Origin: Candidatus Binataceae bacterium
Lineage (GTDB): Bacteria > Desulfobacterota > Binatia > Binatales > Binataceae
Assembly: GCA_035650475.1 (NCBI GenBank)
Contig: DASRHP010000010.1
Coordinates: forward strand, 138,591-202,590
Length of the DNA stretch: 64,000 nt
Direction of reading: 5' to 3'
The translations under genes were made by a program, and so were the position numbers. The stretch's first letter is position 1. Each line of letters opens with the position of its first letter. This document shows, piece by piece, positions 3,863 through 33,435 of this stretch. Under the pieces are notes generated by a model. That model made no database searches. It worked only from the letters and a program-made list of their open reading frames with translations, and was not told the DNA's origin.

Positions 3863-3875
3863 GGTTGATGGCGCA

Positions 3876-5111: not shown

Positions 5112-5133
5112 AACACAGTGGGCCGCCAGGGTT

Positions 5134-5850: not shown

Positions 5851-5858
5851 GTGGGTAC

Positions 5859-6824
5859 ATGGTGGGAATTAAAGGCAGTCACAATGATCGCGCTCCGGGC
5901 TGTCCGATCTGCAAGAGCTCTTCCCGGCACTGCGCCGACGCGCCCGGGTGGGGCGAGTGGCGGGCGTGCGTAAAGTGCGGGATCGAATTCGTTCAACCGA
6001 TGCGCCTGCCCGAGGACGCGCGGACGATGTTCGACGGTGCCTATCGCGGCCAGCGCCACGAAGCCGCCTTTTACGACTTCAATCGCAATCTCAGGCGCCG
6101 CGCCGCCCTCGTCAACGACCCGGCGCTGGGTTTCTGGACCCCGGCCTACTCCGCAGTGCTCGAATGGCTGGTCGGCAGATTCGCGCGCGGTGCAACTGTG
6201 CTCGAGCTTGGATGCGGCCCGGGATTGTTTCTACACGCGCTCAGGAACCGCGGCTTCAATGCGGTAGGTCTCGACGTCGCCCGCGAGGTGGTTGAGCTCA
6301 ACCGCCGCGACGGCTTCACCGTGTGGCACGGCGGAGTCGAGAGCGTGTCGGCCGATTGGGTGCGCCCCGATGCGGTGGTTTCGTTCTTTATGCTCCACCA
6401 CCTTGAGAATCCGATGGGTTTTTTCGCTGCGATCCGCTCCCTATGGCCGTGGGCGCCGCTGGCGGTCGCGCAATACGGGCCCGGGCGCCGCAGCCCTTTG
6501 CGCTCGGCGCCGCCGCGAAACCTGACGCATTGGAACGCAGGCTGTTTGCGCACCGCGCTGGAAATCTCGGGTTATCGGCCTGCGGTCAGCGATTTGCCGA
6601 GCAGCGGCGTCGAGCAGCCTTTCCTCGTTCCATTGCGCAGGATCCTGAAGCCGACCGTCGGTGTTCCATCGCTGTTCCGACTGAATAAGCGGATCGAGCG
6701 CCAGCTTCTGCCCAGGCTTTTGCAACCCTTGCGGGTGAATGCCGAAGTGGTGCTCGCCCTTGCCGATCCAGCACAACCGGGACTCAGAGACGGGCCCCAA
6801 GAGGACGCGGAAAGCAGGGCCTGA
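5859..6824 (+). CDS. Class I SAM-dependent methyltransferase with N-terminal Cys4 zinc ribbon
   Basis: In-frame ATG at 5859, just after the DUF262 stop. CPICKSS...CVKCG forms the zinc ribbon. VLELGCGPGLFLHAL..GFNAVGLDV is SAM motif I plus the post-I acidic residue. Confidence 0.75.
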   Translation: MVGIKGSHNDRAPGCPICKSSSRHCADAPGWGEWRACVKCGIEFVQPMRLPEDARTMFDGAYRGQRHEAAFYDFNRNLRRRAALVNDPALGFWTPAYSAVLEWLVGRFARGATVLELGCGPGLFLHALRNRGFNAVGLDVAREVVELNRRDGFTVWHGGVESVSADWVRPDAVVSFFMLHHLENPMGFFAAIRSLWPWAPLAVAQYGPGRRSPLRSAPPRNLTHWNAGCLRTALEISGYRPAVSDLPSSGVEQPFLVPLRRILKPTVGVPSLFRLNKRIERQLLPRLLQPLRVNAEVVLALADPAQPGLRDGPQEDAESRA

Positions 6825-6837
6825 GATCTCCGTGCAG

Positions 6838-7629
6838 GTGAAGCTTGTGAATAGCGATTCAACCCTGGTGATCGGGATTGGCGAAGTGGGTAGCGCGCTT
6901 GCCGACGTCCTCGAGCAGCGGATGGGACCGGTGCTGCGGCTCGACCTGGCGCCGCAGGAAGTTTCACGGCGGATCGCCGTGATGCATGTATGCATACCAT
7001 TTCACAGTCCCGACAGCTTTCAACGCACCGTAGCTGGTTATATCGGCCGATTTCAGCCCGCTCTTACCATCCTCAACAGCACGGTGCTGCCGGGCACCAC
7101 ACGCGCTTTGCTCCGCGCGACCGGCGCCGCCGTTGCCTATAGCCCGGTTCGCGGCAAGCACGCGAAGATGACGGCGGACCTCAAGCACTATCGAAAATTC
7201 GTCGCCGCGCTCGACGTCGAAACAGCCCGCGCAGCGGAGCGCCACTTCCGGGATGCAGGAATGACAACGCAGCGTGTGTCGCGTCCTGAGACGCTCGAGC
7301 TCGCGAAACTTGCCGAAACCAGTTACTTCGGCGTGCTTATCGGGTTCGCCCAGGAGCTCAACCGATACGCCAATCGGGTGGATGCCGATTACTCAGAAGC
7401 GGCGGAATTTTTCGAGGAAGTGGAGTTTCTGCCGCGGCATCGTTATTTCCCGGGATTCATCGGTGGCCACTGCGTCGTCCCGAATCTGAAGCTCCTGCTG
7501 CGACTCGCACCCTCGGCGCTCTTCGAGGCGGTGCTGACGTCTAACGAGCAGCGGGCCGACGAGTTGCGAATGGCCGCCGCTGGTACCGCCGCAATTGGTG
7601 ACGGGCCCCGGTGCGATGGAAACAAATAA
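6838..7629 (+). CDS. NAD(P)-binding protein, UDP-glucose/GDP-mannose dehydrogenase-like but short (no obvious C-terminal UDP-binding domain)
   Basis: GTG 6838 follows the previous stop. LVIGIGEVGSALA is a GxGxxG dinucleotide fold. ETLELAKLAETSYFGVLIGFAQELNRYANRVDADYSEAAEFF resembles the central helical domain of nucleotide-sugar dehydrogenases. Confidence 0.5.
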   Translation: MKLVNSDSTLVIGIGEVGSALADVLEQRMGPVLRLDLAPQEVSRRIAVMHVCIPFHSPDSFQRTVAGYIGRFQPALTILNSTVLPGTTRALLRATGAAVAYSPVRGKHAKMTADLKHYRKFVAALDVETARAAERHFRDAGMTTQRVSRPETLELAKLAETSYFGVLIGFAQELNRYANRVDADYSEAAEFFEEVEFLPRHRYFPGFIGGHCVVPNLKLLLRLAPSALFEAVLTSNEQRADELRMAAAGTAAIGDGPRCDGNK

Positions 7630-8992
7630 TGCGACCTGCTGGGTGGTAGCCGATCCCGGATGGGGCTCCGCGGTCGTGGCGGCCCAGTTCGCCGCGCTGC
7701 GCGGAGCGCGCGTGCGCGTGTGTGCGCAAGCCGATTCGCTCCCCCAGGAGGTACTGGCTGGCAAGGGCACGGTGATTGCGATGACGGCAGCCGCGCTGCG
7801 GCGCTGCGATTGGCGGTTGCTGAAGAGATGCGTGGAAGCCGGCGCGACCGTCCATGTCAGCCGCTTCGAGCAAGCGCTCGAACATTCGCTTCAACCTTTC
7901 GTTGACGGCCGGTTTCGGATTGAGAGCCGCACCGACATTCGCAGTTTCCGTCTGTGCGACGCGGCGACGCTCCCGCAAGCGTTGCGGGGCGAAGAACTTC
8001 CGGCGGGCGGCGCGGCGGCAGTGGCGGTCGGACTAAACGGTCACTGCCGGACGCTGATGGCGGCGGAGCAGGGCGGGTCGCGGGCGCCCGCGCTCTTTAG
8101 TCTCGAGTGTGGCGCCGGCGCCGTCATCTATGATCCGAACTCCGGGGCGGACGAAACCGGCAACCCAATTGTTGAACGTCTTGCGACGCCGCGCGGGATC
8201 CTTGCCGGCACCGGCGCGTTGGTCGCCGCAAACCTTGCGAACCAAAGGCGCTGGCAGGCCCCTACCAGTTTCAACATCACCATCGACGATCGCCCGGCCA
8301 ATTTCGATTATCTCGGGCCGTTCAGGCTCAAGGCTCTGCTTGAGCACTTCAACGCGCATTATCCTGGAGTCCATCTCGATCTGGCGTGGACGCCTGAACA
8401 CGTGCACGTCAGTCGGCGCTACGTTGACCTCGTCCGCCGGTGCGGCGGCGGATTCGTCTGGCATGGATTTCACCGGCACGTTGATCATCGTACGCTCGCC
8501 GATCCAGCGAACGAACTTCGGCGCGGCCAGGCACTGGTTGAGGAGATCGCGCGGCGCTTCCGCGTACAGTTCCAAAAAGTGATGGTGTTTCCGTACGAGC
8601 GGACCAGTTGGGACTTGCTCGCGCGATTGGAGAAGGCGGGTTTCATAGCAGTCACCGAGTGCGCGGCGGCGCGTCCGGAGGCGGAGTTGGGCGTGCCTCC
8701 ATTTATGCGTCGCTCGATCCCGACCCACTTCGTGCCGGGACTCGGCATACCCGTCCTGAGGCGATACCCGGTAGCGGCACTAAACAGGTCAACACTGCTC
8801 GCGCTCGCCGCGCTCGGCCACCCGATTATTGCGATGGCACACCCGCTGGACCTGGCGTTGCGCCGCTTTGCGCTGGGCCAGGGCCCAGGACGCGCGCTCG
8901 GGCATTTCGAACGTCTGCTTGAATTTGCGTCGCACAAAGGACTGCGCCCGGCATCACTTGAGGAAATAGCAAGCGGCTTGCCGCAAGCCTAA
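7616..8992 (+). CDS. Hypothetical protein; C-terminal half resembles a divergent polysaccharide deacetylase / DUF2334-type fold
   Basis: ORF 7595..8992. ATG 7616 (METNNATCW) overlaps the previous stop region. FNITIDDRPANFDY and VWHGFHRHVDH resemble the Asp and His metal motifs of CE4-like enzymes. I could recognise nothing in the N-terminal ~200 aa. Confidence 0.4.
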   Translation: METNNATCWVVADPGWGSAVVAAQFAALRGARVRVCAQADSLPQEVLAGKGTVIAMTAAALRRCDWRLLKRCVEAGATVHVSRFEQALEHSLQPFVDGRFRIESRTDIRSFRLCDAATLPQALRGEELPAGGAAAVAVGLNGHCRTLMAAEQGGSRAPALFSLECGAGAVIYDPNSGADETGNPIVERLATPRGILAGTGALVAANLANQRRWQAPTSFNITIDDRPANFDYLGPFRLKALLEHFNAHYPGVHLDLAWTPEHVHVSRRYVDLVRRCGGGFVWHGFHRHVDHRTLADPANELRRGQALVEEIARRFRVQFQKVMVFPYERTSWDLLARLEKAGFIAVTECAAARPEAELGVPPFMRRSIPTHFVPGLGIPVLRRYPVAALNRSTLLALAALGHPIIAMAHPLDLALRRFALGQGPGRALGHFERLLEFASHKGLRPASLEEIASGLPQA

Positions 8993-8996
8993 GGGT

Positions 8997-10403: not shown

Positions 10404-10421
10404 CGCAGCGCCGGAGGATGC

Positions 10422-11540
10422 GTGATGCGACGCGCGCTGATTCTGGACAAGCGAGCCGGGTCGTTGTCGATCCAATTGTGCCGCGCGCTCGCACGCAGGG
10501 GCTATCAGGTGGACCTCTTCGGGCAGGCGGGCTCGGCTGCTTTCTGGTCAAGGCATTGTGCCAGGGCTCTCGAGGCCCCGCCTTGGCGTCCGGACGCCGT
10601 CGCACCGGCGTTGCGGCGGATAATCGACAGAGGGACGTACGATGCGGTTTACTTGTGCAATGAAGAGATCCTGGAAATGCTGCATCACGTTCCGCATTCG
10701 GCCGCATGGAACGGGCTCCCGCTTTCGGAAACTGCAACGATCGAGCTGTTACTGAGCAAGCACGATACGCTGTCACAGATGGCGCGCGCCGGGGTGCCCG
10801 TGCCAACTACCATAATTCCGGCCAATGAACAGGAAGTGGAGCATGCAGGGCGCGAGCTGCGCCTGCCGTTGCTGGTGAAGGGCGAGCGGGGTGACGGCGG
10901 CAGAAACGTTCGGCTGGTGAAACGGCGCGGGGATCTGCGCTCGACGTACGCGCAGATCGCGTCCTGCGAGGCGGCTTATGGCGGCCGTCCCGCGCTGCAG
11001 GAAGTCATCCGCGGCGATGCCTATTCGGTCGGGGGGCTCTTTGTCGAGGGCCGCGCGCTGCGCATCTGCGCCCATCGCAAGCTGCTCACCTATCCCCCGA
11101 AGGGCGGATGGACCGTCAAGGGTGTCACGGAGCGGCCGAAGGGGTTGTTGGAAGAGAGTATGAAAGTGTTTGCGGCGCTGCGCTACACGGGCCTCGGACA
11201 CGTTGAGTTTATCCGCGACCGGCGCGACGGCCGCTACAAGTTCATCGAGCTGAATCCGCGGGTATGGGGAAGTATCGGAATTGTCGAGCACGCCGGCGTC
11301 GATCTGTATCAGGCCTACCAGGCGGTGGCGCAAGGGCTGCCAGTTGAGCCGGATCTGAGCTACCGCGAGGGCGTGCAGTACCATCGGTTCTCAGGCGAGA
11401 TCCGTACGATCCTGCAACGGCCGGCGCGGCTGCCCGGCTTTCTAAAGGACGCTCTGGATCCGCGGGTGCGCTCCGACTTCGATTGGTCGGACGCCAAACC
11501 GCATCTCTTCTCACTGAGCTGGAGTACGCGTCACAACTGA
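10422..11540 (+). CDS. ATP-grasp domain protein (carboxylate-amine ligase type)
   Basis: 372 aa. LSKHDTLSQMARAGVPVPTT...LPLLVKGERGDGGRNVRLV...GLGHVEFIRDRRDGRYKFIELNPRVWGS is the ATP-grasp core pattern. GGAGGA lies just upstream (10413-10418). Confidence 0.75.
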   Translation: MMRRALILDKRAGSLSIQLCRALARRGYQVDLFGQAGSAAFWSRHCARALEAPPWRPDAVAPALRRIIDRGTYDAVYLCNEEILEMLHHVPHSAAWNGLPLSETATIELLLSKHDTLSQMARAGVPVPTTIIPANEQEVEHAGRELRLPLLVKGERGDGGRNVRLVKRRGDLRSTYAQIASCEAAYGGRPALQEVIRGDAYSVGGLFVEGRALRICAHRKLLTYPPKGGWTVKGVTERPKGLLEESMKVFAALRYTGLGHVEFIRDRRDGRYKFIELNPRVWGSIGIVEHAGVDLYQAYQAVAQGLPVEPDLSYREGVQYHRFSGEIRTILQRPARLPGFLKDALDPRVRSDFDWSDAKPHLFSLSWSTRHN

Positions 11541-12968
11541 AGGACTGCCGATTACCGGCAATGCCGAGAAACGCGGCGAGCGGCCCGCGGCTCCTCGGAG
11601 GCGCCATTGTCCGAGATCAAGCGTGCGGCGGCCGATACGAAATATGGCCTGCGGCTCCCAATCAGCGTCCTGGTCGCGGACAGTCCCGTTACCGTCAGTT
11701 TCAAAGAAGAGGCGTGCGGATCGAATCAGGTTGTGCGACAGGACTATCTCCGCGGCGCGCGGTCCGAAATAGATTCCCGTACCAACATCATGAATTGAGT
11801 TGTGACCGAGCGACGCGGTCGAGCCCAGCGCCGCCTGAAAGCCATTGCTCGCCCGATACACTGTATTGTCCATCCAGACGATGCCGGTGGCGTGCTCCGA
11901 GTAAAAGGCCGCGCCGTGGTTCGGTCCATCGTGTGCAACATTACGTGTCACTGTTACATGTGAGGAGTTCTTTACGTCGATCCCGTTGTGATTCCAATAG
12001 GAAACGTTGTTGGCGGCGATCAAAGCGTGGTCAGCGCCCTGGCAATTTATCCCGTTGCCATGGCCTCCGGTGTAGGAGATCGTATTGGCGGCGATCACCG
12101 GCGCAGTATCGAGGGTGGGTTCTTGGAGATACATTATGCCGTTGTAGTAACGGTGATCATCGATGGGGCCGGTGCCAGTCTGAGTAACGGTGTTGCGTTC
12201 TATAATTACTCCCGTCAGTCCGCGGCGTCCGCGGTAGGAGTGGAAATATATTCCATACCCGGCGGTGCGTTCGATACGCAGGCCGCGTATTACGATGTTA
12301 CTGGCCTGGTCGTCGCTCACGTTCGCGTAGAAGCCGGCCGGCCGCACGGCGGCCTCAACGGCGCGCGCCGAAGGGCTGCCACCGTCAGGCAGCCATACGT
12401 AAAGGGCGGCCTGCCGGGAATTGAAAAACCAGCTTCCAGGCCTCATCTCGGCGACCGAACAAGAGCGGGAGGCTGAGCACTGGGCACCCGGCAGACAGCA
12501 TGCGCGAGCAAGCCCCCAGGATGGAGCCCCGTCGACGTACACGTTGCCCGGCTGCGCGCCGAGCGCAGCGCGATAAATCGGCGGACGCCAGGGCGACCAG
12601 CCCGTCACGACGTCGCTGCCGCTGATGACCGGCTGGTCGCCGTGGCCGTAAGAGGTGAAGGTCAGGGGATGCCTGGGCACGCCGCCGCGCTTTGCCACCA
12701 GCATTTCACGCCACGTGCGTCCCCTGCGCAGATGCACGGTGTCATCGGCGCCGAGGCGGGCAGAGTTAACGCGTGCGAGTGTCCTCCACGGCGCATGCAG
12801 TGTGCCGGGGCTGGAGTCGTTGCCTAGCATGGAATCGACGAAGAAATCGCTCGCACGGGCCGAGATGTTCGCAAGCGCTATGCTGAAGGTCATCAGGGCA
12901 AGCGCAAGAATGGCGGCTGGCCGGACGGGTCTCTTCCAAGCGGCGCGGCCGGCGGAACAAACGGGCAA
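11511..12968 (-). CDS. Secreted right-handed parallel beta-helix repeat protein (pectate-lyase-fold)
   Basis: Signal-like N-terminus (RPAAILALALMTFSIALANISARA). Repeated NxxxxxN/GxGI motifs follow (GYGIYFHSY, NTVTQTGTG, NTISYTGGHGNGINCQG, NNVSYWNHNGID, RNVAHDG). It is a clear paralogue of the central domain of the 19642..22734 protein. Its 3' end overlaps the convergent ATP-grasp gene by 30 nt. Confidence 0.75.
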   Translation of the reverse strand: MPVCSAGRAAWKRPVRPAAILALALMTFSIALANISARASDFFVDSMLGNDSSPGTLHAPWRTLARVNSARLGADDTVHLRRGRTWREMLVAKRGGVPRHPLTFTSYGHGDQPVISGSDVVTGWSPWRPPIYRAALGAQPGNVYVDGAPSWGLARACCLPGAQCSASRSCSVAEMRPGSWFFNSRQAALYVWLPDGGSPSARAVEAAVRPAGFYANVSDDQASNIVIRGLRIERTAGYGIYFHSYRGRRGLTGVIIERNTVTQTGTGPIDDHRYYNGIMYLQEPTLDTAPVIAANTISYTGGHGNGINCQGADHALIAANNVSYWNHNGIDVKNSSHVTVTRNVAHDGPNHGAAFYSEHATGIVWMDNTVYRASNGFQAALGSTASLGHNSIHDVGTGIYFGPRAAEIVLSHNLIRSARLFFETDGNGTVRDQDADWEPQAIFRIGRRTLDLGQWRLRGAAGRSPRFSALPVIGSPSVVTRTPAQ

Positions 12969-12991
12969 TGTCGGCGCCCGCTCGGGCCGGT

Positions 12992-14437
12992 TCAGGCAGT
13001 GGGGAATAATTGGATTGTCCTGAAAAGCGGATTCTCAGTCGGTACCACCGATGCCGCGCGCTCTCGTTCGAGCAGTCGGAAGCGCTCGGCTGCCATCCAA
13101 CACGCGCACAGGAGCAGTCCTTTCGGATAGCGGATCGGATCGAGGGGGCTTTCGACCAACGCAAGGGTAAGCAGCGGCACGACCACGAGCAGTGCCATGC
13201 TCTTGAGCTCCCAAGGGTCTTCATCGCCGGCAAAGAGACTTAGCCAGGGCCGGATGAACGCCCATAACCAGAGTAGCGTTGCCGGAATTCCCACTCCGAT
13301 CGCGATGCCGAGATAGCCATTATGAAGCGAGGTATTTGCGCCCCGCAGCCAGTAAGCGCCCCAGTCCGGGAACAGACGATCCTGAAAGATCTGCCCTTCG
13401 ACGTCGTAGCCGTATCCGGTAAGTGGACGCCGCTCTATCTGGTGCACCTCGAAACGCCACGCCTCCGTGCGCCCGGACAGATTTGCCGCGCCCCGGTTCA
13501 GATAAACGCGGGCGCCGCTACTCAGGCTGATCCATATCGCACCCGCGACGAGCGCCGCCGCCACGCACGCGAGCAAGCCCTTCAGTCTATATCTCCAGAT
13601 TGCATAAAGAGTTCCTCCGATGCCGAGCGCCACGAAGCCGGAGCGCGAGTCTGCGACCGCCGCGAGCGCGGCGGAGATCGCGATGAGTCCGCCGAGCGTC
13701 GCCTTGCGCCATCCGCTGACATGGGGCCAGCAAACCGCGCCCGCGCCGACCACAACGACCAGCAGCTGCCCTAACACGTTGGGGGTATTGAAGATGCCGC
13801 TGAATCGCGGCGGAAGCCCGGGTTCTTCGGCGCTCCACGACATCGCGGAGGGCAGGGCGACCGCCGCCACCATCTGCAAGGCGAGGATAACGCCGCAACA
13901 AACGAGAAACCGAAGGAGGATGTTTCGAACCTCCACGCCTGCGCTTATATCAGCGATCATGGCGCTCAGCCCCACGAACAGCAAAATCGCGGGGAGAAGA
14001 CGGCCGACCGAAGCCGCCGGCGCGAGCGAGTAAATCGTGGTTGCTGCGGCCCACGCATAATACAGGGCGAAGGCCTTGAAATTCCCGCGCAACAAAATCC
14101 CCGACCGCCACGCCGCCGGCACCATCGGGATACACAGCGCGGCCAGAATCGGGTAGCGAAAGATCCAACGCGACTGCGGATCGTAAGGAATGACGTTCGC
14201 GTAGGGCAGCAGTTCCTCGAGCACGAGCAGGCCCAGCAACCACGCTCTGTGCGACGAGACAAACCGTGATAGCCATATGAGCCCGCCTACTCCGACGACG
14301 GCAGCCAAACCCGCGCCCAGCGCCTTGCCCGGCAAGCTCATAAGAGCGATCATCGCGGCGGTCGTGACAGAGGCGACGGCCAGAGCCTGTCCGGCTGCTC
14401 CCGCGTTAGCTCCTTCGTGAGTATCTATCTCCATCAA
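12992..14437 (-). CDS. O-antigen ligase / polymerase-like integral membrane protein (Wzy_C family, PF04932-type)
   Basis: 481 aa with about 11-12 hydrophobic helices. A central loop plus ADSRSGFVALGIGG segment is typical of the Wzy_C domain. Confidence 0.75.
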   Translation of the reverse strand: MMEIDTHEGANAGAAGQALAVASVTTAAMIALMSLPGKALGAGLAAVVGVGGLIWLSRFVSSHRAWLLGLLVLEELLPYANVIPYDPQSRWIFRYPILAALCIPMVPAAWRSGILLRGNFKAFALYYAWAAATTIYSLAPAASVGRLLPAILLFVGLSAMIADISAGVEVRNILLRFLVCCGVILALQMVAAVALPSAMSWSAEEPGLPPRFSGIFNTPNVLGQLLVVVVGAGAVCWPHVSGWRKATLGGLIAISAALAAVADSRSGFVALGIGGTLYAIWRYRLKGLLACVAAALVAGAIWISLSSGARVYLNRGAANLSGRTEAWRFEVHQIERRPLTGYGYDVEGQIFQDRLFPDWGAYWLRGANTSLHNGYLGIAIGVGIPATLLWLWAFIRPWLSLFAGDEDPWELKSMALLVVVPLLTLALVESPLDPIRYPKGLLLCACWMAAERFRLLERERAASVVPTENPLFRTIQLFPTA

Positions 14438-14449
14438 GCACGCTCCACC

Positions 14450-17400
14450 TTATCGAATCGACGGCGCATCGCTCCGGAACCGGGTAAAGTCGAACATGTT
14501 CATCAAATCACCCACTGCGGGCCGATTCGCGGGCACGTAGGGGTCGCTCGACGCTTGCGGATTCGGCAGGTTGTCGCGCGTGCGTGAGGAAAGACGAGGC
14601 AAACCCCAATTGGCCTCGATAAATTTCAGCACCGAGGCGTGATCATAATAAGTGTGATCCACGTATCCGGCTTTAGCGTATGGGGAGATGATGACCGCCG
14701 GCACTCTGGGGCCGTCGCCGAAGAAGTCGATCGGTTGGATGTATCCGATATCGAAATAGCCACCGCTTTCGTCCATGGTGATCAGGATCGCGGTACTGGA
14801 GAAGAGCGTAGGATTGTTGATTATCGCGTTGACCACGCCGGTCGTGAAGGTTTCGAAGGCGGTCAACGTGGACTGCGCAGGATGGCCGGAATTCGAGGTT
14901 TCAGGCGCCAGGTATGCGACCGCCGGCAGCCAGTTGTTCGACACGTCGGTGATGATTTGGCTTGCGTTTGGCCCGCCCCAGTTCGTTCCGTACAGCTTCC
15001 AGCTGATCTTGTTGGCCGTGAGTCTCTGCGTGATGGTGGGGCTGCGGCCCACGGGCGCCGACGTCCCGACCGGCACGTTATTTAAGAGATAATACGTGTT
15101 GGGCGCGCAGTCACCGCCATTGAATGGCGGGTACGGCAGCGAATTGAGATAGTTCATGATCGCAGCGACCCCCGGCTGCGTCGTGTCCGAACAATTGACA
15201 TAGCTGCCGCCCGAATTGCCGTCCTGCGCGTAGAAATTGTTGGTGCCAGCCTGCGGATCGGGAATGTCGATGAGATTTGAAGGCGGTACCGTGGGGGTGC
15301 CGGAGCTGTCGTTGTAAAAGAGCACGTCGGCATGCGTCAGGTAGAAGAACTCCGGATTGGTCCCGCCCATCACGGCCTGATGATAATTGTCGGCCAATGC
15401 ATAGTTCTGCGCCATGAACAACAGGTGTGGCGCGTCTGCATTGATGTCGTAGTACCCCATCGAAAGGGCGCCCTGGTAAGTGCCGCTTGGTGAGGGCGCC
15501 GGGCTGCTTTGGATTCCGTTGCCCACGGTCTGCGCAACCCACACGAACAGGTCCATCGCGTTTTGCGCGACCTGCTGCCACATCTGGTAAAAGCGATGGA
15601 CCGGGTCGCCAACCGGCTGATCGGGCGCAACATAGGCGCTGATGCGATAGGGCCCATTCGCCAGGTCGCTTGGAAAGCGGTTGTCATTGACGTATTGGGG
15701 CTGGCCGAAGGCGTAGGTTGTATTGGGCTGCGGCAGCGCGCCGTAGGGGCCGGTGCGAGTCGGGTTGATCGAATAGACGTCGGTGTCATTGGCCTGCTGC
15801 TGGGCGGCCAGCGCAAAGTTGGGGCCCGGGGCGTTGGAAGAGGTTATGATACCCTGCGACAGCAGGTTGCGCACCGTCTGCCCGGAGGGCGGCTGGTAGG
15901 TCGCAAACAAATTATCGAAAGAGTGATTTTCGGCAAAAATCACCAACAGGTGCTTGATCGGCGTGGTGGTCGGAAAGGCGGTGGCGTCGTTGGCGGTCGA
16001 CACGCTGATGGAGCTGGTGCCGATTTGGTTCTGGCCGCTGTCATAGCCGTTGGCCGTCAGCGTGTGCGTGCCGTCAGGCAAGGTAGTCGTATTCCAGCTG
16101 TACGTCGAGGGAGCTCCCGAGGCCAGGAGGGCGCCATCAACGTATAGATTGAGCGACTGCACCGCAGAGGTCGTCGAGGTGGTGACATTTACGATGCCCC
16201 AGAGGGTTGCGCCGTTCTGCGGAGCCGTGATGCTGACGGTGTTTTCAACACTGACCGCTATCGAAGTGGTCGCGATGGTTCCGGTCGAGTTCTTTCCGTC
16301 GACGCGAATCGTGTGACTGCCGTTGGTGACGGTGGCGGAGTTCCAACTGAAGGTATAGGGCGGCGATGACGCGATGTACTTGCCGTCAACGTAAAGATTG
16401 ACCCACGACACCGGCGGCGAGGCCTGGGTTGCGATGCTTACGGTGCCGAACACGGCGGCGCCGTTGGCCGGAGAAAGGATGCTCACCAACGGGGTTGGAG
16501 TCGGAGTTGGAAAAGGTGTCGGCGACGGCGTTGGCGTCGGGCTTGCTGTGGGCGCCGGGGTCGGAGAGGGCGACGGCGTGGGCGTCGGTGACGAAGTCGG
16601 CAACGGCGTTGGCGTGGGCGAGGCAACCGGCGTCGGTGTGGAAGCGGGAGTCGGGGTCGGCGAAGAGGCCGAGTTGGCCACGTTAACGGTTATCGAGGCG
16701 GTGGCAATCACGCCCGTGGAGTTTTTTCCCTGGGCGGTGAAGGTATGGCTGCCGTTGGCCACCTTGGTGGAATCCCACGTGAAAGTGAAGGGCGGCGACG
16801 ACGCGTAATATTTGCCGTCGATTACGAGATTGATCCACGACACCGGCGGTGATGCGGTCGTAACTATACTCACTGTGCCCGAGACGACAGCCCCATTGGC
16901 AGGTGAAGTGATGCTCACCAGCGGAGCCGGCGTAGGCGATGGCGCCGGAGTGGGCGTCGGTGTGGAAGTCGGGTTCGGCGACAGCGTGGGAGTCGGCGTC
17001 GGGCTGGAGGTTGGAACCGGCGTCGGGCTCGGCGAATCTGTTGGCATCGGCGAGGGCGTGGCGGTCGGTGCCGGGGTGGGCGAGCTGGTCGGAATCGGTG
17101 ACGGCGTCGCCGTGGGAATCGGCGTAGGCGTTGGTGTTGGTGCCGGGGTCGGACTCGGAGTGGGAACGGGAGTCGGGGTCGAGGCGGGCGTTGGGGTCGG
17201 CGTCACCAGCGGACTCGGAGTTGGCGTCGAAATTGAATTGGCAACCGTTACGGCTATCGAAGCGCTGCCGACAACGGTTCCCGAGGAGCTTTTGCCGTCG
17301 GCGCGGATCGTATGGCTGCCGTTGGCAACGGTGGTCGAGTCCCAGGTGAAAGTATACGGGGGTGAAGACTTGAAGTACTTGCCGTCGATATAAAGGTTGA

Positions 17401-17650
17401 TCCAGGATACCGCGGTGCTCTTCTGAGTTGCGATGCTGACGGTGCCGGACACGCTCGCTCCGTCCGCAGGCGAAATGATAACGACCGCCGGTGTGGGAGT
17501 AGGAGTCGGAGTTGCGCTTTGGGCATCGGCGGCGGGAGCGAGGCCCGCAATCACTAAGACAACCATCATGGCTGCCGCGCCGAGCGCACGCGCCGCGCCG
17601 AGCGCGCGGTTGCACCATCGCAGCAAATCAAAGTGGGAAAAAGCAGTCAC
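14450..17650 (-). CDS. Secreted multidomain protein: signal peptide, four Ig-like (Big-type) repeats separated by Pro/Thr linkers, C-terminal phosphoesterase-family domain (phospholipase C / AcpA-like, PF04185-type)
   Basis: ORF 14450..17887. Start moved to in-frame GTG 17650: GGAG lies 6 nt upstream and the signal-like [22 protein letters not shown] follows, whereas the longer version would overlap the HTH gene at 17839..18060. The repeat [38 protein letters not shown] occurs three times plus one divergent copy. [16 protein letters not shown] opens the ~500-aa C-terminal domain. Confidence 0.8.
16487..16666 (-). repeat. Low-complexity Pro/Thr/Ser linker-coding repeat (PT linker 2 of the 14450..17650 gene)
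   Basis: Encodes [59 protein letters not shown]. On the + strand the DNA is reiterated ggcgtcgg/ggagtcgg-type units. Confidence 0.9.
16922..17233 (-). repeat. Low-complexity Pro/Thr/Ser linker-coding repeat (PT linker 1, about 100 codons)
   Basis: Encodes [46 protein letters not shown]...[12 protein letters not shown]. The mirror + strand ORFs read GVGVG. Confidence 0.9.
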
Positions 17651-17838
17651 TCGGTGCTCCGTCCCATTCGGCTGGCGATGCCGTTGTCTGGGTTGCCACG
17701 ATGGTAACGTGCGCGTGCAACTCGGCCTACTCACTGGCGGCAATATGTAACGGAGAGGGCGGTTACACAGTGACCAGTCACCGGCAGGGAACCGCCAACC
17801 GTCAATAGTCACTTCGTCATGTGATGCGTCGCCCCGGC

Positions 17839-18060
17839 CTAGCTTGAAGGCTCTCCCTCCGAGCCCGGGGGGCGGGTCAGTCGCCACTCGTCAATCTTGC
17901 GCAGGTCGAAACGCCATCGATTGCCCACCTTGAATGCGGGCAATTCGTCCCGCTTGAGGAGGCGGTAGACGGTGGTCGGATGCACATGCAGATAGCGTGA
18001 CAGTTCCTTCACCGTCACGAGGCGCGGACGAGCCGCCTCATCCTGTTGAGCAGGTGGCAC
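17839..18060 (-). CDS. Small helix-turn-helix DNA-binding protein, excisionase/MerR-like family (TIGR01764-type)
   Basis: 73 aa. [46 protein letters not shown] is the canonical excisionase-family HTH pattern. It lies 21 nt downstream of the Crp/Fnr gene on the same strand. Confidence 0.7.
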
Positions 18061-18081
18061 GGGAACCCGCGCGCGGGCAGC

Positions 18082-18861
18082 CTAGTTGGCGTGCGACTGC
18101 GACTGGTAGTGTTTTGCAAACCCGTTCTGCGCGACGACTCCCGTATTGCTCGCCGGCACGATCTTCGTCGGGATCCGACCGTCGAGAAGAATGTACTGTT
18201 TGCCGTGGCGCGCGAGCTCCCGCCGCGCGACCATCTGCCCGATCAGCCTGCTCACCATCGGGCGCGAGCTGCCAATCATGTCAGCCAGCTCGCCATGGGT
18301 GAGCTCCGGGGTCAGAATAATCCCGCGCTTGTCCTGGACCCCGAAACGCTCGGCGAGGTCGCCCAGTACGGCTTCGAGGCGCCGGCGGAAGGACAGATTG
18401 AAGAGTGCCGCGTACCAGTAGGCGAGGGCTGACCAGCGGGTGTTAACCTGTTCGAAGAGCTTGAGCAAGGTCGCGTGATCGAGGCCGTGGAGGACCTTGA
18501 GCGCGCGCTCGCGGGTGAGCACGCCCACCGAGCAGCGGGTCAGCGCACGCGCCTCGAAGGCCTGGTTGCGGCGCCCTTTGACGTCGACGAAGTCAACGTG
18601 ACCGAGCAAATCCCCGGGCCCGGCGAGCCGCACGAGTCGGCGTTGTCCTTCAGGCGTCACGAAGCAGAGCTTGGCGATGCCGGTAAAGATCCAGAACATC
18701 AGGTCGGCGGGCGAACTTTGCTCAAAGATCACCGCCTCCTTTGGATAGAGGATCGAAGTGTGGTGGTCGAAAAGTTCCTCGAGCAGCTCCGGCGGCAGCG
18801 AGTCAGCGAGCTGCGTTTGCAGGCGGCGATGGGTTTCTTCCGAAAGCCGGTAGGAGAACAT
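18082..18861 (-). CDS. Crp/Fnr-family transcriptional regulator (cNMP-binding domain + C-terminal HTH); no N-terminal Cys cluster
   Basis: 259 aa. The beta-barrel effector domain reads YPKEAVIFEQSSPADLMFWIFTGIAKL....RRLVRLAGPGDLLG. The C-terminal HTH reads LTHGELADMIGSSRPMVSRLIGQM. Confidence 0.85.
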   Translation of the reverse strand: MFSYRLSEETHRRLQTQLADSLPPELLEELFDHHTSILYPKEAVIFEQSSPADLMFWIFTGIAKLCFVTPEGQRRLVRLAGPGDLLGHVDFVDVKGRRNQAFEARALTRCSVGVLTRERALKVLHGLDHATLLKLFEQVNTRWSALAYWYAALFNLSFRRRLEAVLGDLAERFGVQDKRGIILTPELTHGELADMIGSSRPMVSRLIGQMVARRELARHGKQYILLDGRIPTKIVPASNTGVVAQNGFAKHYQSQSHAN

Positions 18862-19641
18862 TGCGCCTTTACCCCCTAAAAACCGTTGGGGCCGGCTCCC
18901 GCGCTTCCCCTCCTGCCAGCTGCGAGATACGACCGTAAGCAGAATGTAACGTCTGCCCTTTGATGAAGATAGAGAAAAATTGAGGCCTAAGAGTTATTTC
19001 AGGCGGAATTTTGAAGTGCGTGCGGTGAATTAAAACCGCGTGCGCTTGACGCTCTTCTGGTTCGCCCTGTGAGTTAGGCGAAGATCCTCTCCGGAAATAA
19101 TCGAGACCGGAAATTTTTTAGGTTCTGCTGAAATTTGTTCATTTGCGACTAAGGGAAACAAAACCTGACAACAAGACACTTGATCGAGAGACTTCCGATC
19201 GCTGACGAGCTTCGCTTGTTCACGTTTTTCTTTTTCGTGACACCTGTCGCGCACTTCGTCAGGGTGCCCACGTTCTTCCTGCACGAGAGATCGCCGCGGC
19301 ATTTTGCGGCTTCCGAACGATCGCCGACTTGATCAGTTTGCCTCCTCTGCGGCAACATCCAGCGCATCGAGGTTGGGGGGAGCCCTCGCAATACCTGTGA
19401 AGTTCCTGTTCCGCCTGAGTCCGCAACCTTCGTAGAGTCTCCCCTTAAGACCAACTGGCGTAGTGCTCCTTGGGAGGCGGCGCGATGCGCGCCGAAACCG
19501 GGGATGGTGAGGTGCGGTGGGGGCCTCGACTACGTTCTTCGCAAGCTCAGTTTGTGCGGCCCACCAGACAATTGACGCGTGTCAGTGTGCGCCGGGCTTG
19601 TCGCGACAGAGCGGTGTGGTGCGGCGCGGGAGGGAAGAACC
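18862..19641. promoter_or_regulatory. Unusually long (about 780 nt), A+T-richer divergent intergenic region between the Crp/Fnr operon and the giant fusion gene
   Basis: No convincing ORF. Composition is clearly less G+C-rich than the flanks, especially 18940-19330. It must contain the promoters of both divergent units. I could assign no individual -35/-10 or operator with confidence. Confidence 0.4.
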
Positions 19642-22600
19642 ATGCGAACGCGAGGCGCCCAAGTGTGTGGGCTAGCGGCCGCGATGGCCGCGCTGGTGTG
19701 GCTGGCCGCATTCGCCGATGCGGCGACGAGCTCGGCTGTCAGCATAACGTCGCCGAGCGACGGGGCGACGGTCTCGGGCACAGTCACAATCACGCTGGCC
19801 CAAGGGCCGCACGTGAAAACCGTCAACGTGTATATCGATAACGTCGAGCTGGCGACCGCACCGCCCGACACCATTTCGTGGAACACCGTCACCGTCGCCA
19901 ACGGTTCGCATACGATAGTTGCCAAGGCATATTCGGCTAAAGGCAACCTGCAGGGCACGGACTCGGTGACAGTGTCGGTTGCCAACCCGACGACTGCGAC
20001 GCCCGCGCCGCCGCCGGCGACGCCGGTTGCAACGCCGTCATCCACGCCCGCGGCGACCGCCACGCCGATCGCAACTGCGTCGCCGACTCCCGCACCCACG
20101 CCTGCGCCGGGCGCGCACGCCTACTACGTGGATCCCGCCGGCAACGACACCAACTCGGGCACCAGTCCGACCACTCCCTGGCGCACGGTTGCGCGCGTGA
20201 ACGCCGCCAGCCTGCAGCCCGGCGACGTGGTTTATTTCAAGGCCGGCGGGCTGTGGCGGGAAACTCTTGCACCGGCCAATGGCGGCGCGGCGGGCTACCC
20301 GATCACGTTTACTTCCTACGGCAGCGGGGCCAAGCCGATAATCAGCGGCAGCGACGTAGTCAGCGGATGGACGCTGAACAGCGGCTCGACCTATCGGGCG
20401 GCGTTGGCCGTCCAGCCCAACAACGTCTACGTCGACGGCGGTCCTGGATGGGGCCTCACGCGCGCCGGATCGGTCTCCGCGATGACCGCCGGAAGCTGGT
20501 TCTGGAGCGCCTCGGTGCTCTACGTGCGGCTCGCCGACGGCTCCAACCCGTCCACCCATCTGATCGAGGCGGCGACCCGCGTGTACGGCTTCAGGGTCAA
20601 TACCGGCGCCGGCTCAAGCTTCAGCTACATCACCATCGACGGGCTCGAGTTTGAGCGCACTGGCGGCTACGGAATTTACTTCCACGACTACGCGACGCCC
20701 GGCCATGCCGGCCTCGCGGGCATCGTGATCAGCAACAACACCGTGACCCAGACCGGCACCGGCACGGTGGATGGCGGACAGTACTACAACGCGGTGCATT
20801 TCCTCGACGAGACGCACTCGACCGACAGCGTCAGGATTCTCAACAACGTCATCAGCTACTGCGGCGGGCACAACTGCCTCGAGGCGCAGGACGCCAACAA
20901 CGTCGACATCGTGGGCAATGACGTCTCCCACTACAATCACAACGGAATCGACACCAAGGGCGGCTCGGGAATCCTCGTCCGCGCCAACTACGTCCACGAC
21001 CAGCCGAGCATCGGCGCCGCCTTCTATATCGAGGACACCACCAGCTACAACGCCGACGTGACCTGGGAGCAGAACACCGTCTACAACGCCTCCAACGGGT
21101 TCCAGTGCGCGGGCGGCGCGGCCGCCGCTCATGTCAGCTGCACCCTGTACAACAACAGCATGCTGAACGCTGCGACCGGGATCTTCCTCGGGCCCTCGGG
21201 CACCGACGCGGTCTCGATCAACGTCAAGAACAACGTCACTTTCGGCAGCAGCATCAGCTTCGAGAATGACGACGGCAAGGGAACCTATTCGATCGACTAC
21301 AACGATTGGGGGTCGAACCCGCGCCTGATGCTGGGCGGCACGAGCTACAGCTTCAGCCAGTGGCAGGCGCTGGGCGGCCACTCGCACGACATCGCGGCCG
21401 ACCCGCTGTGGGTGGACGCGCCCGCCAACTTCAGCCTGCAATCGACCTCGCCCTGTATCAACGCCGGCGTCAACGTGGGACTGCCGTACAGCGGAAGCGC
21501 GCCCGACATGGGTGCGGTCGAATGGCAGGCGGGCGGGGCGACCCCGACGCCCACAGCGACGGCGCCGAGCGCAACTGCAACGCCGACCACGACGCCTGCG
21601 CCGACGCCGACGCCTGCCGCCGCGGTGAGCATCACGACCCCAGCCGCGGGCGCGACCGTCTCGGGCACCACCAGCATCGCAACGGTGGTGAGCCCGCAGG
21701 TCAGCTGGATTAACGTTTTTATCGACAGCACCTACCTGGCCTCTTCGCCGCCGTATACCTTCGCATGGAACACCACCGCCAGCACCAACGGCAGCCATAT
21801 CGTGATGGCGCAGGCGAAGAACTCCAGCGGCACCGTGATCGGCACCGATTCGATCAGCGTCACCGTCCAGAACGGTGCGGCGACGCCGACTCCGGCGGCG
21901 ACTCCGACGCCGAGCCCGCTGGCGACCGCTACCCCGGCGCCGCGCGCCTTCAGCCACGTCTTCGTCGTGGTCGAGGAGAACCACGGCTACACCGACGTGG
22001 TCGGCAATACGGCCTCGATGCCGTACCTCAACTCGCTCATCGCCAAATACGGGCTCGCCACCCGGTACTACGCGAATACGCATCCGTCGCTGCCCAACTA
22101 CCTGTGGCTGACCACCGGCAGCGCCGACGGGATCACCGCCGACGTCTGCGGGGTGACCGTCACCGCTGACAACGTGGTGCGCGAGCTCAACGCGGCCGGG
22201 CTATCCTGGAAAGCGTACGAGGAGAGCCTGCCCTCGCCAGGTTACCTCGGATGCAGCTCTGGCGAGTACGTGGAGAAGCACGATCCTTTCGCGTACTTCA
22301 GCGACGTGATCAACAGCAGCGCGCAGCAGCAGAACATCGTGCCGTTCAGCCAGTTCGCGGTTGACCTGGCCAACAACACCCTGCCGCGCTACAGCTTCAT
22401 CACGCCCAACCTGCTCGACGACGCGCACGACGGCACCTTGGAGCAGGCCGACGTCTGGCTCCAGACCAACATCGCGCCGCTGCTGAGCACCCCGCTTTTC
22501 CAGCCGGGCGGCAGCGGACTGTTGATCATCGTTTTCGACGAGGGAACCGACAACACCAACGGCGGTGGACAGGTAGCCTGGGTCGTCGTCAGCCCGCTGG

Positions 22601-22734
22601 CCAAGGCCGGCTACCGCTCCACCACCTTCTACCAGCATCAGAGCACGCTGCGTCTGATGCTGGAGGGATTGGGGGTGACCAGGCTGCCGGGCGCAGCAGC
22701 CACCGCGCCCGACATGTGGGAGTTCTTCAACTAG
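19642..22734 (+). CDS. Secreted fusion protein: signal peptide, Ig-like domain, PT linker, right-handed beta-helix domain, PT linker, Ig-like domain, PT linker, phosphoesterase-family (acid-phosphatase/PLC-like) domain
   Basis: Start taken at ATG 19642 (GGGAGGGAAG just upstream; MRTRGAQVCGLAAAMAALVWLAAFADA signal). The Ig-like domains and the beta-helix are paralogous to those of the 14450..17650 and 11511..12968 proteins. The C-terminal FSHVFVVVEENHGYTDVVGN..HPSLPNYLWLTTGS..LLDDAHDG is a phosphoesterase-family pattern. Confidence 0.8.
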   Translation: MRTRGAQVCGLAAAMAALVWLAAFADAATSSAVSITSPSDGATVSGTVTITLAQGPHVKTVNVYIDNVELATAPPDTISWNTVTVANGSHTIVAKAYSAKGNLQGTDSVTVSVANPTTATPAPPPATPVATPSSTPAATATPIATASPTPAPTPAPGAHAYYVDPAGNDTNSGTSPTTPWRTVARVNAASLQPGDVVYFKAGGLWRETLAPANGGAAGYPITFTSYGSGAKPIISGSDVVSGWTLNSGSTYRAALAVQPNNVYVDGGPGWGLTRAGSVSAMTAGSWFWSASVLYVRLADGSNPSTHLIEAATRVYGFRVNTGAGSSFSYITIDGLEFERTGGYGIYFHDYATPGHAGLAGIVISNNTVTQTGTGTVDGGQYYNAVHFLDETHSTDSVRILNNVISYCGGHNCLEAQDANNVDIVGNDVSHYNHNGIDTKGGSGILVRANYVHDQPSIGAAFYIEDTTSYNADVTWEQNTVYNASNGFQCAGGAAAAHVSCTLYNNSMLNAATGIFLGPSGTDAVSINVKNNVTFGSSISFENDDGKGTYSIDYNDWGSNPRLMLGGTSYSFSQWQALGGHSHDIAADPLWVDAPANFSLQSTSPCINAGVNVGLPYSGSAPDMGAVEWQAGGATPTPTATAPSATATPTTTPAPTPTPAAAVSITTPAAGATVSGTTSIATVVSPQVSWINVFIDSTYLASSPPYTFAWNTTASTNGSHIVMAQAKNSSGTVIGTDSISVTVQNGAATPTPAATPTPSPLATATPAPRAFSHVFVVVEENHGYTDVVGNTASMPYLNSLIAKYGLATRYYANTHPSLPNYLWLTTGSADGITADVCGVTVTADNVVRELNAAGLSWKAYEESLPSPGYLGCSSGEYVEKHDPFAYFSDVINSSAQQQNIVPFSQFAVDLANNTLPRYSFITPNLLDDAHDGTLEQADVWLQTNIAPLLSTPLFQPGGSGLLIIVFDEGTDNTNGGGQVAWVVVSPLAKAGYRSTTFYQHQSTLRLMLEGLGVTRLPGAAATAPDMWEFFN
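19984..20109 (+). repeat. Pro/Thr/Ala linker-coding low-complexity repeat in the 19642..22734 gene
   Basis: Encodes [42 protein letters not shown]. Similar shorter linkers lie at about 21541-21618 and 21880-21945. Confidence 0.85.
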
Positions 22735-30551: not shown

Positions 30552-30658
30552 TGGCGCGATTTTAAACCAGGGCGCGGGCAAAAGTAAGCGGACCGCGAAC
30601 GTTGCGGTTAATCCGGGCGCTCGCGGTCCGCATCAGGGCCATTCTGCTCGGTCACGCC

Positions 30659-32584
<1,926 letters not shown>

Positions 32585-32622
32585 GGTTTCAGGAAACCTC
32601 TAATTCTCCAGATAATCATTAT

Positions 32623-33321: not shown

Positions 33322-33435
33322 CGATCGGAAATGCACAGCTTCGAAATACCTTCCACTTAAGATAAGCACGATTTCCTCGCCCGCCAGCATCATGGCCGGC
33401 TTTTCTCAGGATCCCCGAAACTGTGCCCCCATTCG

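Follow-up and report, generated by a model that had tools for sequence, protein, structure and literature searches.

Introduction

WceF of Pantoea stewartii is a beta-helix glycanase encoded within the Wzy-dependent stewartan exopolysaccharide (EPS) cluster, and its loss results in longer chains (PMC7949094). It appears to be the closest functional precedent for the beta-helix protein of the locus described here, which lies in a 64-kb stretch of Candidatus Binataceae DNA (hereafter the window, to which coordinates refer) and combines a putative Wzy polymerase, a right-handed beta-helix protein and two large secreted proteins that end in phosphoesterase (PF04185) domains. WceF and the window protein have in common the right-handed beta-helix, a tailspike-like fold, export to the periplasm or beyond, and a gene position among Wzx/Wzy biosynthesis genes; the longer chains that follow its loss indicate that WceF acts on the polymer of its own cell. 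The likeness is one of fold class and setting, and WceF was not among the best 50 PDB fold matches listed for the beta-helix. WceF, whose homologues include AmsF and WcaM, is a free, Tat-exported trimer without a phosphatase partner, whereas the window beta-helix is predicted to be membrane-anchored beside Wzy, is fused to Wzy in relatives, and shares its locus with phosphoesterases. Hydrolases, lyases or epimerases encoded with, and acting on, a nascent exopolysaccharide are also represented by AlgG/AlgL, PslG, PelA and RbmB, which differ in being separate soluble proteins of other, synthase-type pathways.

The two PF04185 domains resemble different enzymes. SapM of Mycobacterium tuberculosis, a broad phosphomonoesterase, needs residues E59, N60, S95, K159, H160, H204, D238 and E239 for activity, as mutagenesis established (PMC6635428). 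Like the shorter window domain, SapM is a compact (~270-300 amino acids, aa), secreted PF04185 protein, but SapM stands alone and is a virulence factor directed at phosphoinositides of the host, whereas the window domain forms the C-terminus of a beta-helix/Big_7 protein encoded among polysaccharide genes, and its nucleophile motif is PSL where SapM has PSE. The longer domain resembles Francisella AcpA and PlcH/PlcN, with which it shares the metal ligands E/N and D/E, the equivalent of H350, and a Thr nucleophile as in the phospholipases C (PLCs); it differs from them in its sub-cut-off NCBIfam scores, in the deletion of the H287/H288 loop and in the four Big_7 modules that precede it.

Gene content was derived from a six-frame open reading frame (ORF) listing, translation and Pfam; related genome loci are designated by L numbers, and related proteins or their sequence-identity clusters by P numbers. 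All parts of the locus appear to come from known families. Their arrangement has a narrow distribution, so far among uncultured Binatia only, and we infer each of the functional steps proposed below. Literature searches on PF04185, Binatota exopolysaccharide and Wzy-beta-helix fusions yielded nothing describing this arrangement. To our knowledge, there is no earlier description of a polysaccharide locus that has recruited two PF04185 types and carries one of the two in fusion with a glycan enzyme.

A Presumed Wzy Polymerase Coupled to a Beta-Helix Protein

The region appears to be the distal end of a Wzx/Wzy-type EPS locus. Its Wzy_C-family protein (57.6 bits for PF04932, cut-off 31.7) is presumed to be the repeat-unit polymerase rather than a ligase, because Wzy is the sole Wzy_C gene in the fetched parts of the related L002 + L031 locus, which also has Wzx, Bac_transf and Poly_export. 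The beta-helix gene follows 23 nt downstream (Table 1).

A profile of the beta-helix retrieved 23 genome loci, all 23 from metagenome-assembled genomes (MAGs), some labelled Binataceae or Binatus and others generically ('Deltaproteobacteria bacterium', 'uncultured delta proteobacterium', 'Proteobacteria bacterium'). Wzy is directly followed by the beta-helix on the same strand in 19 loci, of which 18 were found by tblastn of the window proteins on fetched loci, the other being L031. Separate genes encode the two in 13 loci, among them the window and L001; they share one uninterrupted frame in L003, L004, L008, L009 and L024, and a 951-aa gene of L031 contains both domains. Pfam confirmed the combination of Wzy_C and Beta_helix in four separate 50%-identity clusters (P0016, P0340, P0344 and P0350), and at the 90%-identity level fusions occur in P0016 and in P0017, the latter being the L003 gene. 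These six loci and four clusters bring the number of fused proteins to at least 10.

In the fusion proteins, hydropathy delineates a Wzy core, a K/R-rich loop, one extra transmembrane (TM) helix and a 425-aa beta-helix, which is predicted to be periplasmic on the basis of the positive-inside rule applied to the loop and the extra helix. The stand-alone beta-helix of the window finds its best matches in such fusions (P0016/P0017, E 5e-142). Since the window Wzy ends in a K/R-rich tail and the beta-helix protein starts with a K/R-rich stretch followed by a hydrophobic segment, the break in the gene likely fell inside the cytoplasmic linker. What used to be the last TM helix seems to have become the signal anchor of the beta-helix protein, which, judging by its sequence, is the split-off orthologue of the C-terminal domain of the fusions, and more than a mere paralogue of the secreted beta-helix described below. 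In a simple neighbor-joining (NJ) tree of Wzy sequences, computed without support values, the window/L001 pair is nested among fused lineages; hence the split is probably derived. It was probably accompanied by an inversion, through which Wzy and the beta-helix came to follow the long PF04185 gene at a distance of 12 nt.

Covalent Wzy-enzyme fusion goes unmentioned in a review of Wzy polymerases from 2025 (PMC12004945). An earlier note on this DNA missed the link between Wzy and the beta-helix, which appears far more widely conserved than the PF04185 association. Wzy proteins are difficult to work with, which has held back insight into how their polymers are sized, matured and released. Recurrent fusion in several 50%-identity clusters of one phylum suggests that a physical link between polymerisation and the processing of the glycan can exist, and the fusions offer soluble domains open to expression and testing.

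In seven loci (L013, L016, L018, L019, L022, L023 and L026), the Wzy-associated beta-helix gene is followed ~3 kb downstream by another one, which is more divergent (28-34% identity across the core); duplication of the beta-helix near Wzy is thus widespread among Binatia loci.

Fold and Probable Chemistry of the Beta-Helix

The AlphaFold2 model of the stand-alone beta-helix (predicted local distance difference test, pLDDT, 82.7) was best matched in Foldseek by XylC of glycoside hydrolase (GH) family GH120 (E 6e-11, TM-score 0.58), BT_1002 and GH136 lacto-N-biosidases. Further matches included the Klebsiella K1 capsule lyase, rhamnogalacturonan and alginate lyases, lyases of polysaccharide lyase (PL) families PL6/PL9, the AlgE4/AlgE6 epimerases, RbmB and phage tailspikes. 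The PDB and viral fold searches thus gave generic matches to carbohydrate-active enzymes and tailspikes, with TM-scores of at most 0.58, that do not separate hydrolase, lyase and epimerase. The wider family comprises 1137 clusters at E <=1e-30, some of whose members are fused to GH18 or CHB_HEX_C (chitobiase-type) modules. Across both paralogous lineages, A (Wzy-associated) and B (secreted), the polar residues D234, H267, H291, D295, K297, D311 and Y320 (A1 alignment numbering) are invariant, and this cluster matched no single GH, PL or epimerase family. Taken together, the model and its matches point to a carbohydrate-active right-handed beta-helix protein.

The matches to AlgE4/AlgE6, the PL6/PL9 lyases and RbmB, along with the nucleoside diphosphate (NDP)-sugar dehydrogenase gene within the locus, would also suit a polymer-level C5-epimerase or a lyase of a uronic-acid polymer in place of a hydrolase, and the invariant NHNGID-K turn presumably recalls the YG(F/I)DPH(D/E) turn of mannuronan epimerases. 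This resemblance is loose, however, no TM-score exceeds 0.58, and the top fold matches (GH120, BT_1002, GH136) are glycoside hydrolases. Such a chemistry is doubtful for the tethered beta-helix, although it would be compatible with each of the other explanations considered below.

A Secreted Beta-Helix Fused to a SapM-Type Phosphoesterase

The lineage-B beta-helix forms the core of a secreted fusion protein (Beta_helix E 2e-10, PF04185 E 8e-32; ORF start at 19579 or 19642). As the earlier note had read from the letters, this core and the stand-alone beta-helix are paralogues (BLASTP E 8e-97 with 44% identity across 448 aa, which chance could not produce), the Ig-like repeats of both large proteins belong to one family (Big_7, 58-60% identical, E 1e-24 by BLASTP), and both proteins end in PF04185 domains of different subtypes, sharing just 29% identity over 127 aa. 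The five genes it described were all recovered where it had placed them, in the ORF listing and by Pfam; profile search found each of the families it expected (Beta_helix PF13229, PF04185 and Big-type); and metal and nucleophile residues are retained in both PF04185 domains. Its Rosetta-stone argument, that the same modules occur once split and once fused, holds and is strengthened by the Wzy-beta-helix fusions.

In the short PF04185 domain, E779, N780, S816, K879, H880, H929, D966 and E967 (numbered from the ATG at 19642) match the eight residues that SapM requires. Seven of these are invariant in 21 homologues, while the column of K879 is neither invariant nor 90%-conserved. The spacings between them are 37/64/49/37, against 36/65/44/34 in SapM, a comparison made by the published residue set and not by sequence alignment. 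The AlphaFold2 model (pLDDT 86.4) is best matched in the PDB by AcpA (TM-score 0.76, E 1.6e-14), which places the domain in the core fold of the alkaline-phosphatase superfamily, and scores for the NCBIfam models acid_phos_Burk (28 bits) and PC_PLC (24 bits) lie below their cut-offs. More than 7200 relatives of ~280-320 aa are named 'phosphatidylinositol-3-phosphatase' or acid phosphatase by the Joint Genome Institute (JGI).

A close homologue of the lineage-B beta-helix (55% identity) is found in L005 (ENA ERZ25039482 contig_57285) amid RepA_C, ParA, Tn3 transposase, resolvase and toxin-antitoxin genes, a plasmid-like or mobile setting which suggests that the secreted beta-helix gene can move horizontally.

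A Long Phosphoesterase Domain Upstream of Wzy

The gene for the first large secreted protein ends 12 nt upstream of Wzy in the same operon. Its ORF is open to 17887 (1145 codons), while the source's own gene call has 678 aa (P0216). We rejected this shorter call and consider the long form the likely protein, because a signal peptide and Big_7 domains with significant scores are encoded in the part that the call omits and because the ORF is conserved in L001, an 80% identical relative (1091-aa ORF, 4683-7958, called at 660 aa). Automatic gene calls appear to shorten proteins with Pro/Thr linkers: the L001 beta-helix (1761-3200) was called at 300 aa within a 479-aa ORF. Two plus-strand genes, probably spurious, were called over the linker region in L001 (6667-7659).

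The long PF04185 domain scores 184.6 bits against a Pfam cut-off of 23. Its residues E653/N654, T843 and D1039/E1040 align with the AcpA metal ligands E43, N44, D386 and D387 and with the nucleophile S175, and H1002 is the equivalent of AcpA H350. The domain falls below the NCBIfam cut-offs for acid_phos_Burk (TIGR03397; 145 against 363 bits) and PC_PLC (TIGR03396; 118 against 580 bits). In the family alignment, the Binatia subclade has a deletion of ~29 residues exactly at the AcpA H287/H288 loop, where the wider family reads CxICDP. This deletion may mark a changed substrate pocket. The loop-deleted subclade of the ~595-aa PF04185 family, in which the 'CxICDP...MTT' loop is gone, comprises the window protein, P0217, P0220, P0223, P0227 and P0229; some members have Ser in place of the nucleophile Thr, and in one the DE metal pair has become DK.

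From their retained residues, it is plausible that both PF04185 domains are active enzymes, in a family that spans monoesterases, lipid phosphodiesterases and a soluble phosphodiesterase. The earlier note had proposed a machinery that acts on a phosphodiester-containing surface polymer (teichoic-acid-like or phosphoglycan) or couples glycan breakdown to the release of phosphate; on the former view, the PF04185 domains would be phosphodiesterases that cut the backbone of the polymer. The family does include true phosphodiesterases, namely PlcH/PlcN, the plant non-specific PLCs (NPCs) and the soluble glycerophosphoethanolamine phosphodiesterase 8yk5, which were matched by sequence (E 1e-14) and also by fold, and the loss of the His-pair loop of AcpA in the long domain could open its site for a polymer. 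Against these points, the fused domain agrees residue for residue with the monoesterase SapM, and the pathway resembles ordinary Wzx/Wzy glycosidic polymerisation. No teichoic-acid-type transferase (TagF/Glyphos_transf, LicD, Stealth or PF00884) appears in the Pfam tables of window genes 35-11540, L001-L004 and L031, which leave out the first ~15 kb of the locus, outside the window, and the ~5 kb of a relative contig that was not fetched. Since the locus has no such phosphotransferase gene in these tables, a phosphodiester backbone is unlikely, and this part of the note is not supported.

Distribution of the Phosphoesterase Association

The association of PF04185 with Wzy-beta-helix seems only partly conserved. 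Most Wzy-beta-helix loci are without any PF04185 gene; such genes lie within the locus in the window, L001, L004 and L002 + L031. Their placement varies, from 12 nt upstream of Wzy in the window to a tandem triplicate beside the Wzy-beta-helix gene in L031 and stand-alone plus fused forms in L004. At least five proteins combine beta-helix and PF04185 in one chain (the window protein and its relatives P0001, P0002, P0003 and P0005, with identities as low as 46%), and L004 and L031 + L002 each have both stand-alone PF04185 genes and such a fusion. In the NJ tree, the PF04185-bearing loci fall into two separated Wzy clades, each with a PF04185-free sister, in agreement with identities of 50% (window-L003) and 40% (window-L031).

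Two cytoplasmic genes follow the same pattern. The ATP-grasp gene accompanies PF04185 in four of four loci (its orthologues are restricted to L001, L004 and L031), and the thymidylate-kinase-like gene does so in all three PF04185 loci whose contig reaches far enough (window, L001, L031), whereas both are missing from the PF04185-free loci L003, L008 and L025.

These genomes contain many PF04185 genes, which as a rule stand isolated, and those considered here could in principle be passengers that came to lie beside a polysaccharide locus by chance. The covalent fusion to a beta-helix is nevertheless kept down to 46% identity, a PF04185 gene is co-operonic with Wzy, the association recurs in four loci of two separated Wzy clades, and Big_7-PF04185 genes adjoin other glycan loci with Crp and HTH_17 genes. 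Chance adjacency, which the earlier note had named as what would undo its argument, is made practically untenable by covalent fusion and by recurrence.

Members of the loop-deleted subclade are also found near glycan genes elsewhere. In L035 (Logan SRR31012000_681272), a loop-deleted Big_7-PF04185 gene has two Crp-family genes and an HTH_17 gene as its neighbours, and the same locus has GT2, GT4, an RND adaptor, an outer-membrane factor and a Wzx flippase. L035 thus looks like a second, different glycan locus with the same combination of regulators and phosphoesterase.

The gene order PF04185-Wzy-beta-helix within one operon, and the lipid phosphodiesterases known in the family, would also accommodate an action on lipid: a PLC-like enzyme could cut the finished chain off undecaprenyl diphosphate, or attack membrane phospholipid, in a step of release or termination. 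Four Big_7 modules and long Pro/Thr linkers rather suggest action away from the membrane, and since most related loci are without a PF04185 enzyme, which speaks against a general step of the pathway, release from the lipid carrier is possible but highly improbable. It is likewise very unlikely, if marginally less so, that the Wzy-tethered beta-helix and the co-transcribed PLC-like phosphoesterase constitute a built-in termination and release device for Wzy-dependent synthesis, in which polymerase-attached enzymes would cut the chain from its undecaprenyl-diphosphate carrier or at a phosphate-marked position. Such a device would represent a previously undescribed way to end and release a Wzy product.

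Proposed Processing of a Phosphate-Decorated Polysaccharide

We tentatively propose, as a quite possible reading, that the enzymes of this locus process the cell's own, phosphate-decorated polysaccharide. The Wzy_C polymerase would work beside a membrane-anchored, periplasmic carbohydrate-active beta-helix, which most likely cuts or modifies the nascent chain and would thereby control chain length or maturation, as WceF does for stewartan. Outside the cell, the secreted paralogous beta-helix, carried on Big_7 modules and probably controlled by the adjacent Crp-family and HTH_17 regulators, would act on the same glycan. The lineage would have recruited two kinds of PF04185 enzyme, one AcpA/PLC-like and co-transcribed with Wzy, the other a SapM-like phosphomonoesterase fused to the secreted beta-helix, and the cytoplasmic thymidylate-kinase-like protein and ATP-grasp ligase would have come with them. 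Phosphate substituents would be added to the repeat unit in the cytoplasm, and the extracytoplasmic phosphoesterases would remove or trim them along with glycan cleavage, in a scheme that mirrors the glycanase-esterase fusions which strip decorations off the polymer they cut. The analysis shows the identity of the domains, their paralogy, fusion and synteny, intact catalytic residues and a predicted topology; we infer a shared glycan substrate, its phosphorylation and the chemistry of the beta-helix. This reading is preferred because a PF04185 gene is co-transcribed with the polymerase, because PF04185 genes travel with cytoplasmic modification genes, and because two catalytic domains joined in one protein usually share a single complex substrate.

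The main rival appears to be matrix-anchored phosphate scavenging, in which the beta-helix and Big_7 modules would attach to the polysaccharide of their own cell, or trim it loosely, and thereby keep broad-specificity phosphatases in the matrix; the phosphate would come from environmental organophosphates, and the polysaccharide would carry none. This possibility is consistent with the SapM type of the fused domain, SapM being a broad phosphomonoesterase, with the many secreted enzymes of the stand-alone kind that both PF04185 families have among Acidobacteriota, Chloroflexota and Proteobacteria of soil, and with Pro/Thr linkers and Ig-like modules, which are typical of tethered extracellular enzymes. 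It leaves unexplained, however, the co-transcription of PF04185 with Wzy across a 12-nt gap, the three PF04185 genes beside Wzy-beta-helix in L031, and the joint presence or absence of PF04185 with the kinase-like and ATP-grasp genes. The fused paralogue has retained the invariant polar residues of the beta-helix, an indication that it is still an enzyme, and the palindrome found upstream of the fusion gene is Crp/Fnr-like (no search aimed at Pho-type sites was made). We regard scavenging as somewhat unlikely. A precedent for the recovery of phosphate is provided by GlpQ and PhoD of Bacillus subtilis, which degrade wall teichoic acid under phosphate starvation. They are the closest in that they are secreted phosphoesterases by which a cell regains phosphate from a surface polymer of its own, but they belong to other enzyme families, act on a phosphodiester backbone for which the Pfam tables of the present locus show no biosynthetic genes, and have no glycanase partner.

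Several points weigh against the processing of a phosphate-decorated polysaccharide. The phosphate on the polysaccharide, though plausible, is conjectured from indirect evidence, and the kinase-like assignment of the 468-aa accessory protein is weak, its Pfam matches falling below the cut-offs. The long PF04185 domain is without the loop of two substrate-binding histidines that are essential in AcpA, and the beta-helix could be an epimerase or a mere binding module. The PF04185 association comprises four loci in two lineages, all of them MAGs, separated in a Wzy tree for which there are no support values. Both PF04185 types are very large families (each with more than 7000 hits), mostly of stand-alone secreted phosphatases of soil bacteria, and ordinary members of both occur in unrelated contexts. 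The neighbourhoods of two stand-alone relatives (P0135 and P0280) contain neither Pho-regulon nor glycan genes, and the baseline role of the families is therefore not readable from context.

The recruitment of phosphatases would mean either that the exopolysaccharide is decorated with phosphate and has its own 'erasers' or that phosphatases are immobilised in the matrix, and both bear on phosphorus cycling by Binatia, which are abundant uncultured bacteria of soil and peat.

Regulators and the Divergent Intergenic Region

The Crp and helix-turn-helix pair pointed out earlier consists of a Crp gene (18082-18861) and a separate HTH_17 gene (17839-18060). The arrangement of a Crp gene divergent from the fusion gene recurs in L001 and L002, and an HTH_17 gene also adjoins the Big_7-PF04185 genes of L033 and L035. 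In a comparison of two genomes with 70-89% protein identity, the intergenic region that separates Crp from the fusion gene is ~85% identical and contains long, perfectly conserved blocks; a long 5' leader or more than one operator may lie there. Within it, the palindrome TTGACGCGTGTCA at 19572-19584, 58 nt 5' of the fusion ATG, conforms to the Crp/Fnr-like pattern TTGAC-N4-GTCA, which has one match in the 64 kb against 0.23 expected, and is conserved in L001 as TTGACGAGTGTCA. We consider TTGACGCGTGTCA a candidate Crp/Fnr-type site. An Rfam scan of the whole window at the gathering threshold, the 780-nt region included, returned nothing, and a scan of 11300-19700 for promoters and terminators gave no excess over shuffled sequence.

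Biosynthesis Genes and Flanking Regions

Table 1. Features of the polysaccharide locus and its secreted enzymes, ordered by window coordinate (+, forward strand; -, reverse strand;., no strand)
Position	Strand	Feature	Basis
35..8992	+	Upstream EPS biosynthesis genes	Pfam and NCBIfam; gene order syntenic in L003, L008, L025
8997..10403	+	Accessory protein: NTP_transf_5-like N-terminus and thymidylate-kinase-like P-loop (GPDGSGKS, DRY)	Weak Pfam E 6e-5; PDB thymidylate kinases E 4e-4
10422..11540	+	ATP-grasp ligase, closing gene of the + strand operon	Pfam CPSase_L_D2/ATP-grasp_3
11511..12968	-	Lineage-A right-handed beta-helix, 485 aa; N-terminal K/R-rich stretch and one hydrophobic segment (predicted signal anchor)	PF13229 E 1e-15; TM analysis
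12992..14437	-	Wzy_C-family polytopic membrane protein; ~10 TM segments, K/R-rich C-terminal tail	PF04932 E 1.6e-15; hydropathy
14450..15970	-	Long PF04185 domain (AcpA/PLC-like, ~500 aa)	PF04185 E 4e-54; AcpA 2d1g E 1.6e-25
15971..17650	-	N-terminal part of the first large protein: signal peptide (start at 17569, or GTG at 17650), four Big_7 Ig-like modules, Pro/Thr linkers	Pfam Big_7 E 4e-48
17839..18060	-	HTH_17 (excisionase/MerR-like) DNA-binding protein, 73 aa	PF12728 E 1.8e-15
18082..18861	-	Crp/Fnr-family regulator, divergent from the fusion gene	cNMP_binding (PF00027) 49 bits; HTH_Crp_2 (PF13545) 35 bits
18862..19641	.	780-nt divergent regulatory region	~85% identical to L001 9222-10020 (alignment)
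19642..22734	+	1030-aa secreted fusion: signal peptide, Big_7 (from 19735), lineage-B beta-helix (~20113-21500), Big_7 (from 21619), PF04185	Pfam, BLASTP
21943..22734	+	Compact SapM-type PF04185 domain, 266 aa	Invariant alignment columns and SapM residue set

From position 35, Pfam and NCBIfam identify on the plus strand the 3' part of a Wzx flippase gene, a FemAB/GNAT-like gene, GT2, a gene for an unknown 403-aa protein and GT4, followed by GmrSD_N/DUF262, a methyltransferase, an NDP-sugar dehydrogenase fragment and a gene for an unknown 465-aa protein. The 465-aa and 403-aa proteins gave no usable Pfam match, and NCBIfam offered no named equivalog for the unknown proteins, for Wzy or for the beta-helix. 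Membership of the XrtA/PEP-CTERM EPS system was rejected, as the scores for pepcterm_femAB (91 bits, cut-off 260) and stp3 (50 bits, cut-off 442) indicate distant resemblance only; in addition, a PEP-CTERM motif is absent from the C-termini of both large proteins.

L002 and L031, which belong to one related 34-kb contig, together represent the whole locus except ~5 kb in the middle that was not fetched. Their gene order begins with Crp, the beta-helix-PF04185 fusion and Poly_export, continues with Bac_transf and Wzx, and then runs through methyltransferase, dehydrogenase, unknown, kinase-like, ATP-grasp and Wzy-beta-helix genes to three convergent PF04185 genes.

A GmrSD_N/DUF262 protein, of restriction-endonuclease type, is kept inside the polysaccharide locus. 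Its gene lies at 4855-5850 (+) between GT4 and the methyltransferase in the window, and immediately 3' of Wzy-beta-helix in relatives (L003 12770-13576; L008 11367-12065).

Unrelated housekeeping genes occupy the window 3' of 22734. Among them, a 713-aa ORF at 30602-32743 (+) matches Pfam 'NAD-GH' (PF10712) with E 2e-184 and lies antisense to a 641-aa ORF at 30659-32584 (-), which sits between dnaJ (29421-30581) and grpE (32623-33393). The 713-aa ORF is almost certainly the known shadow ORF opposite dnaK, and no real gene.

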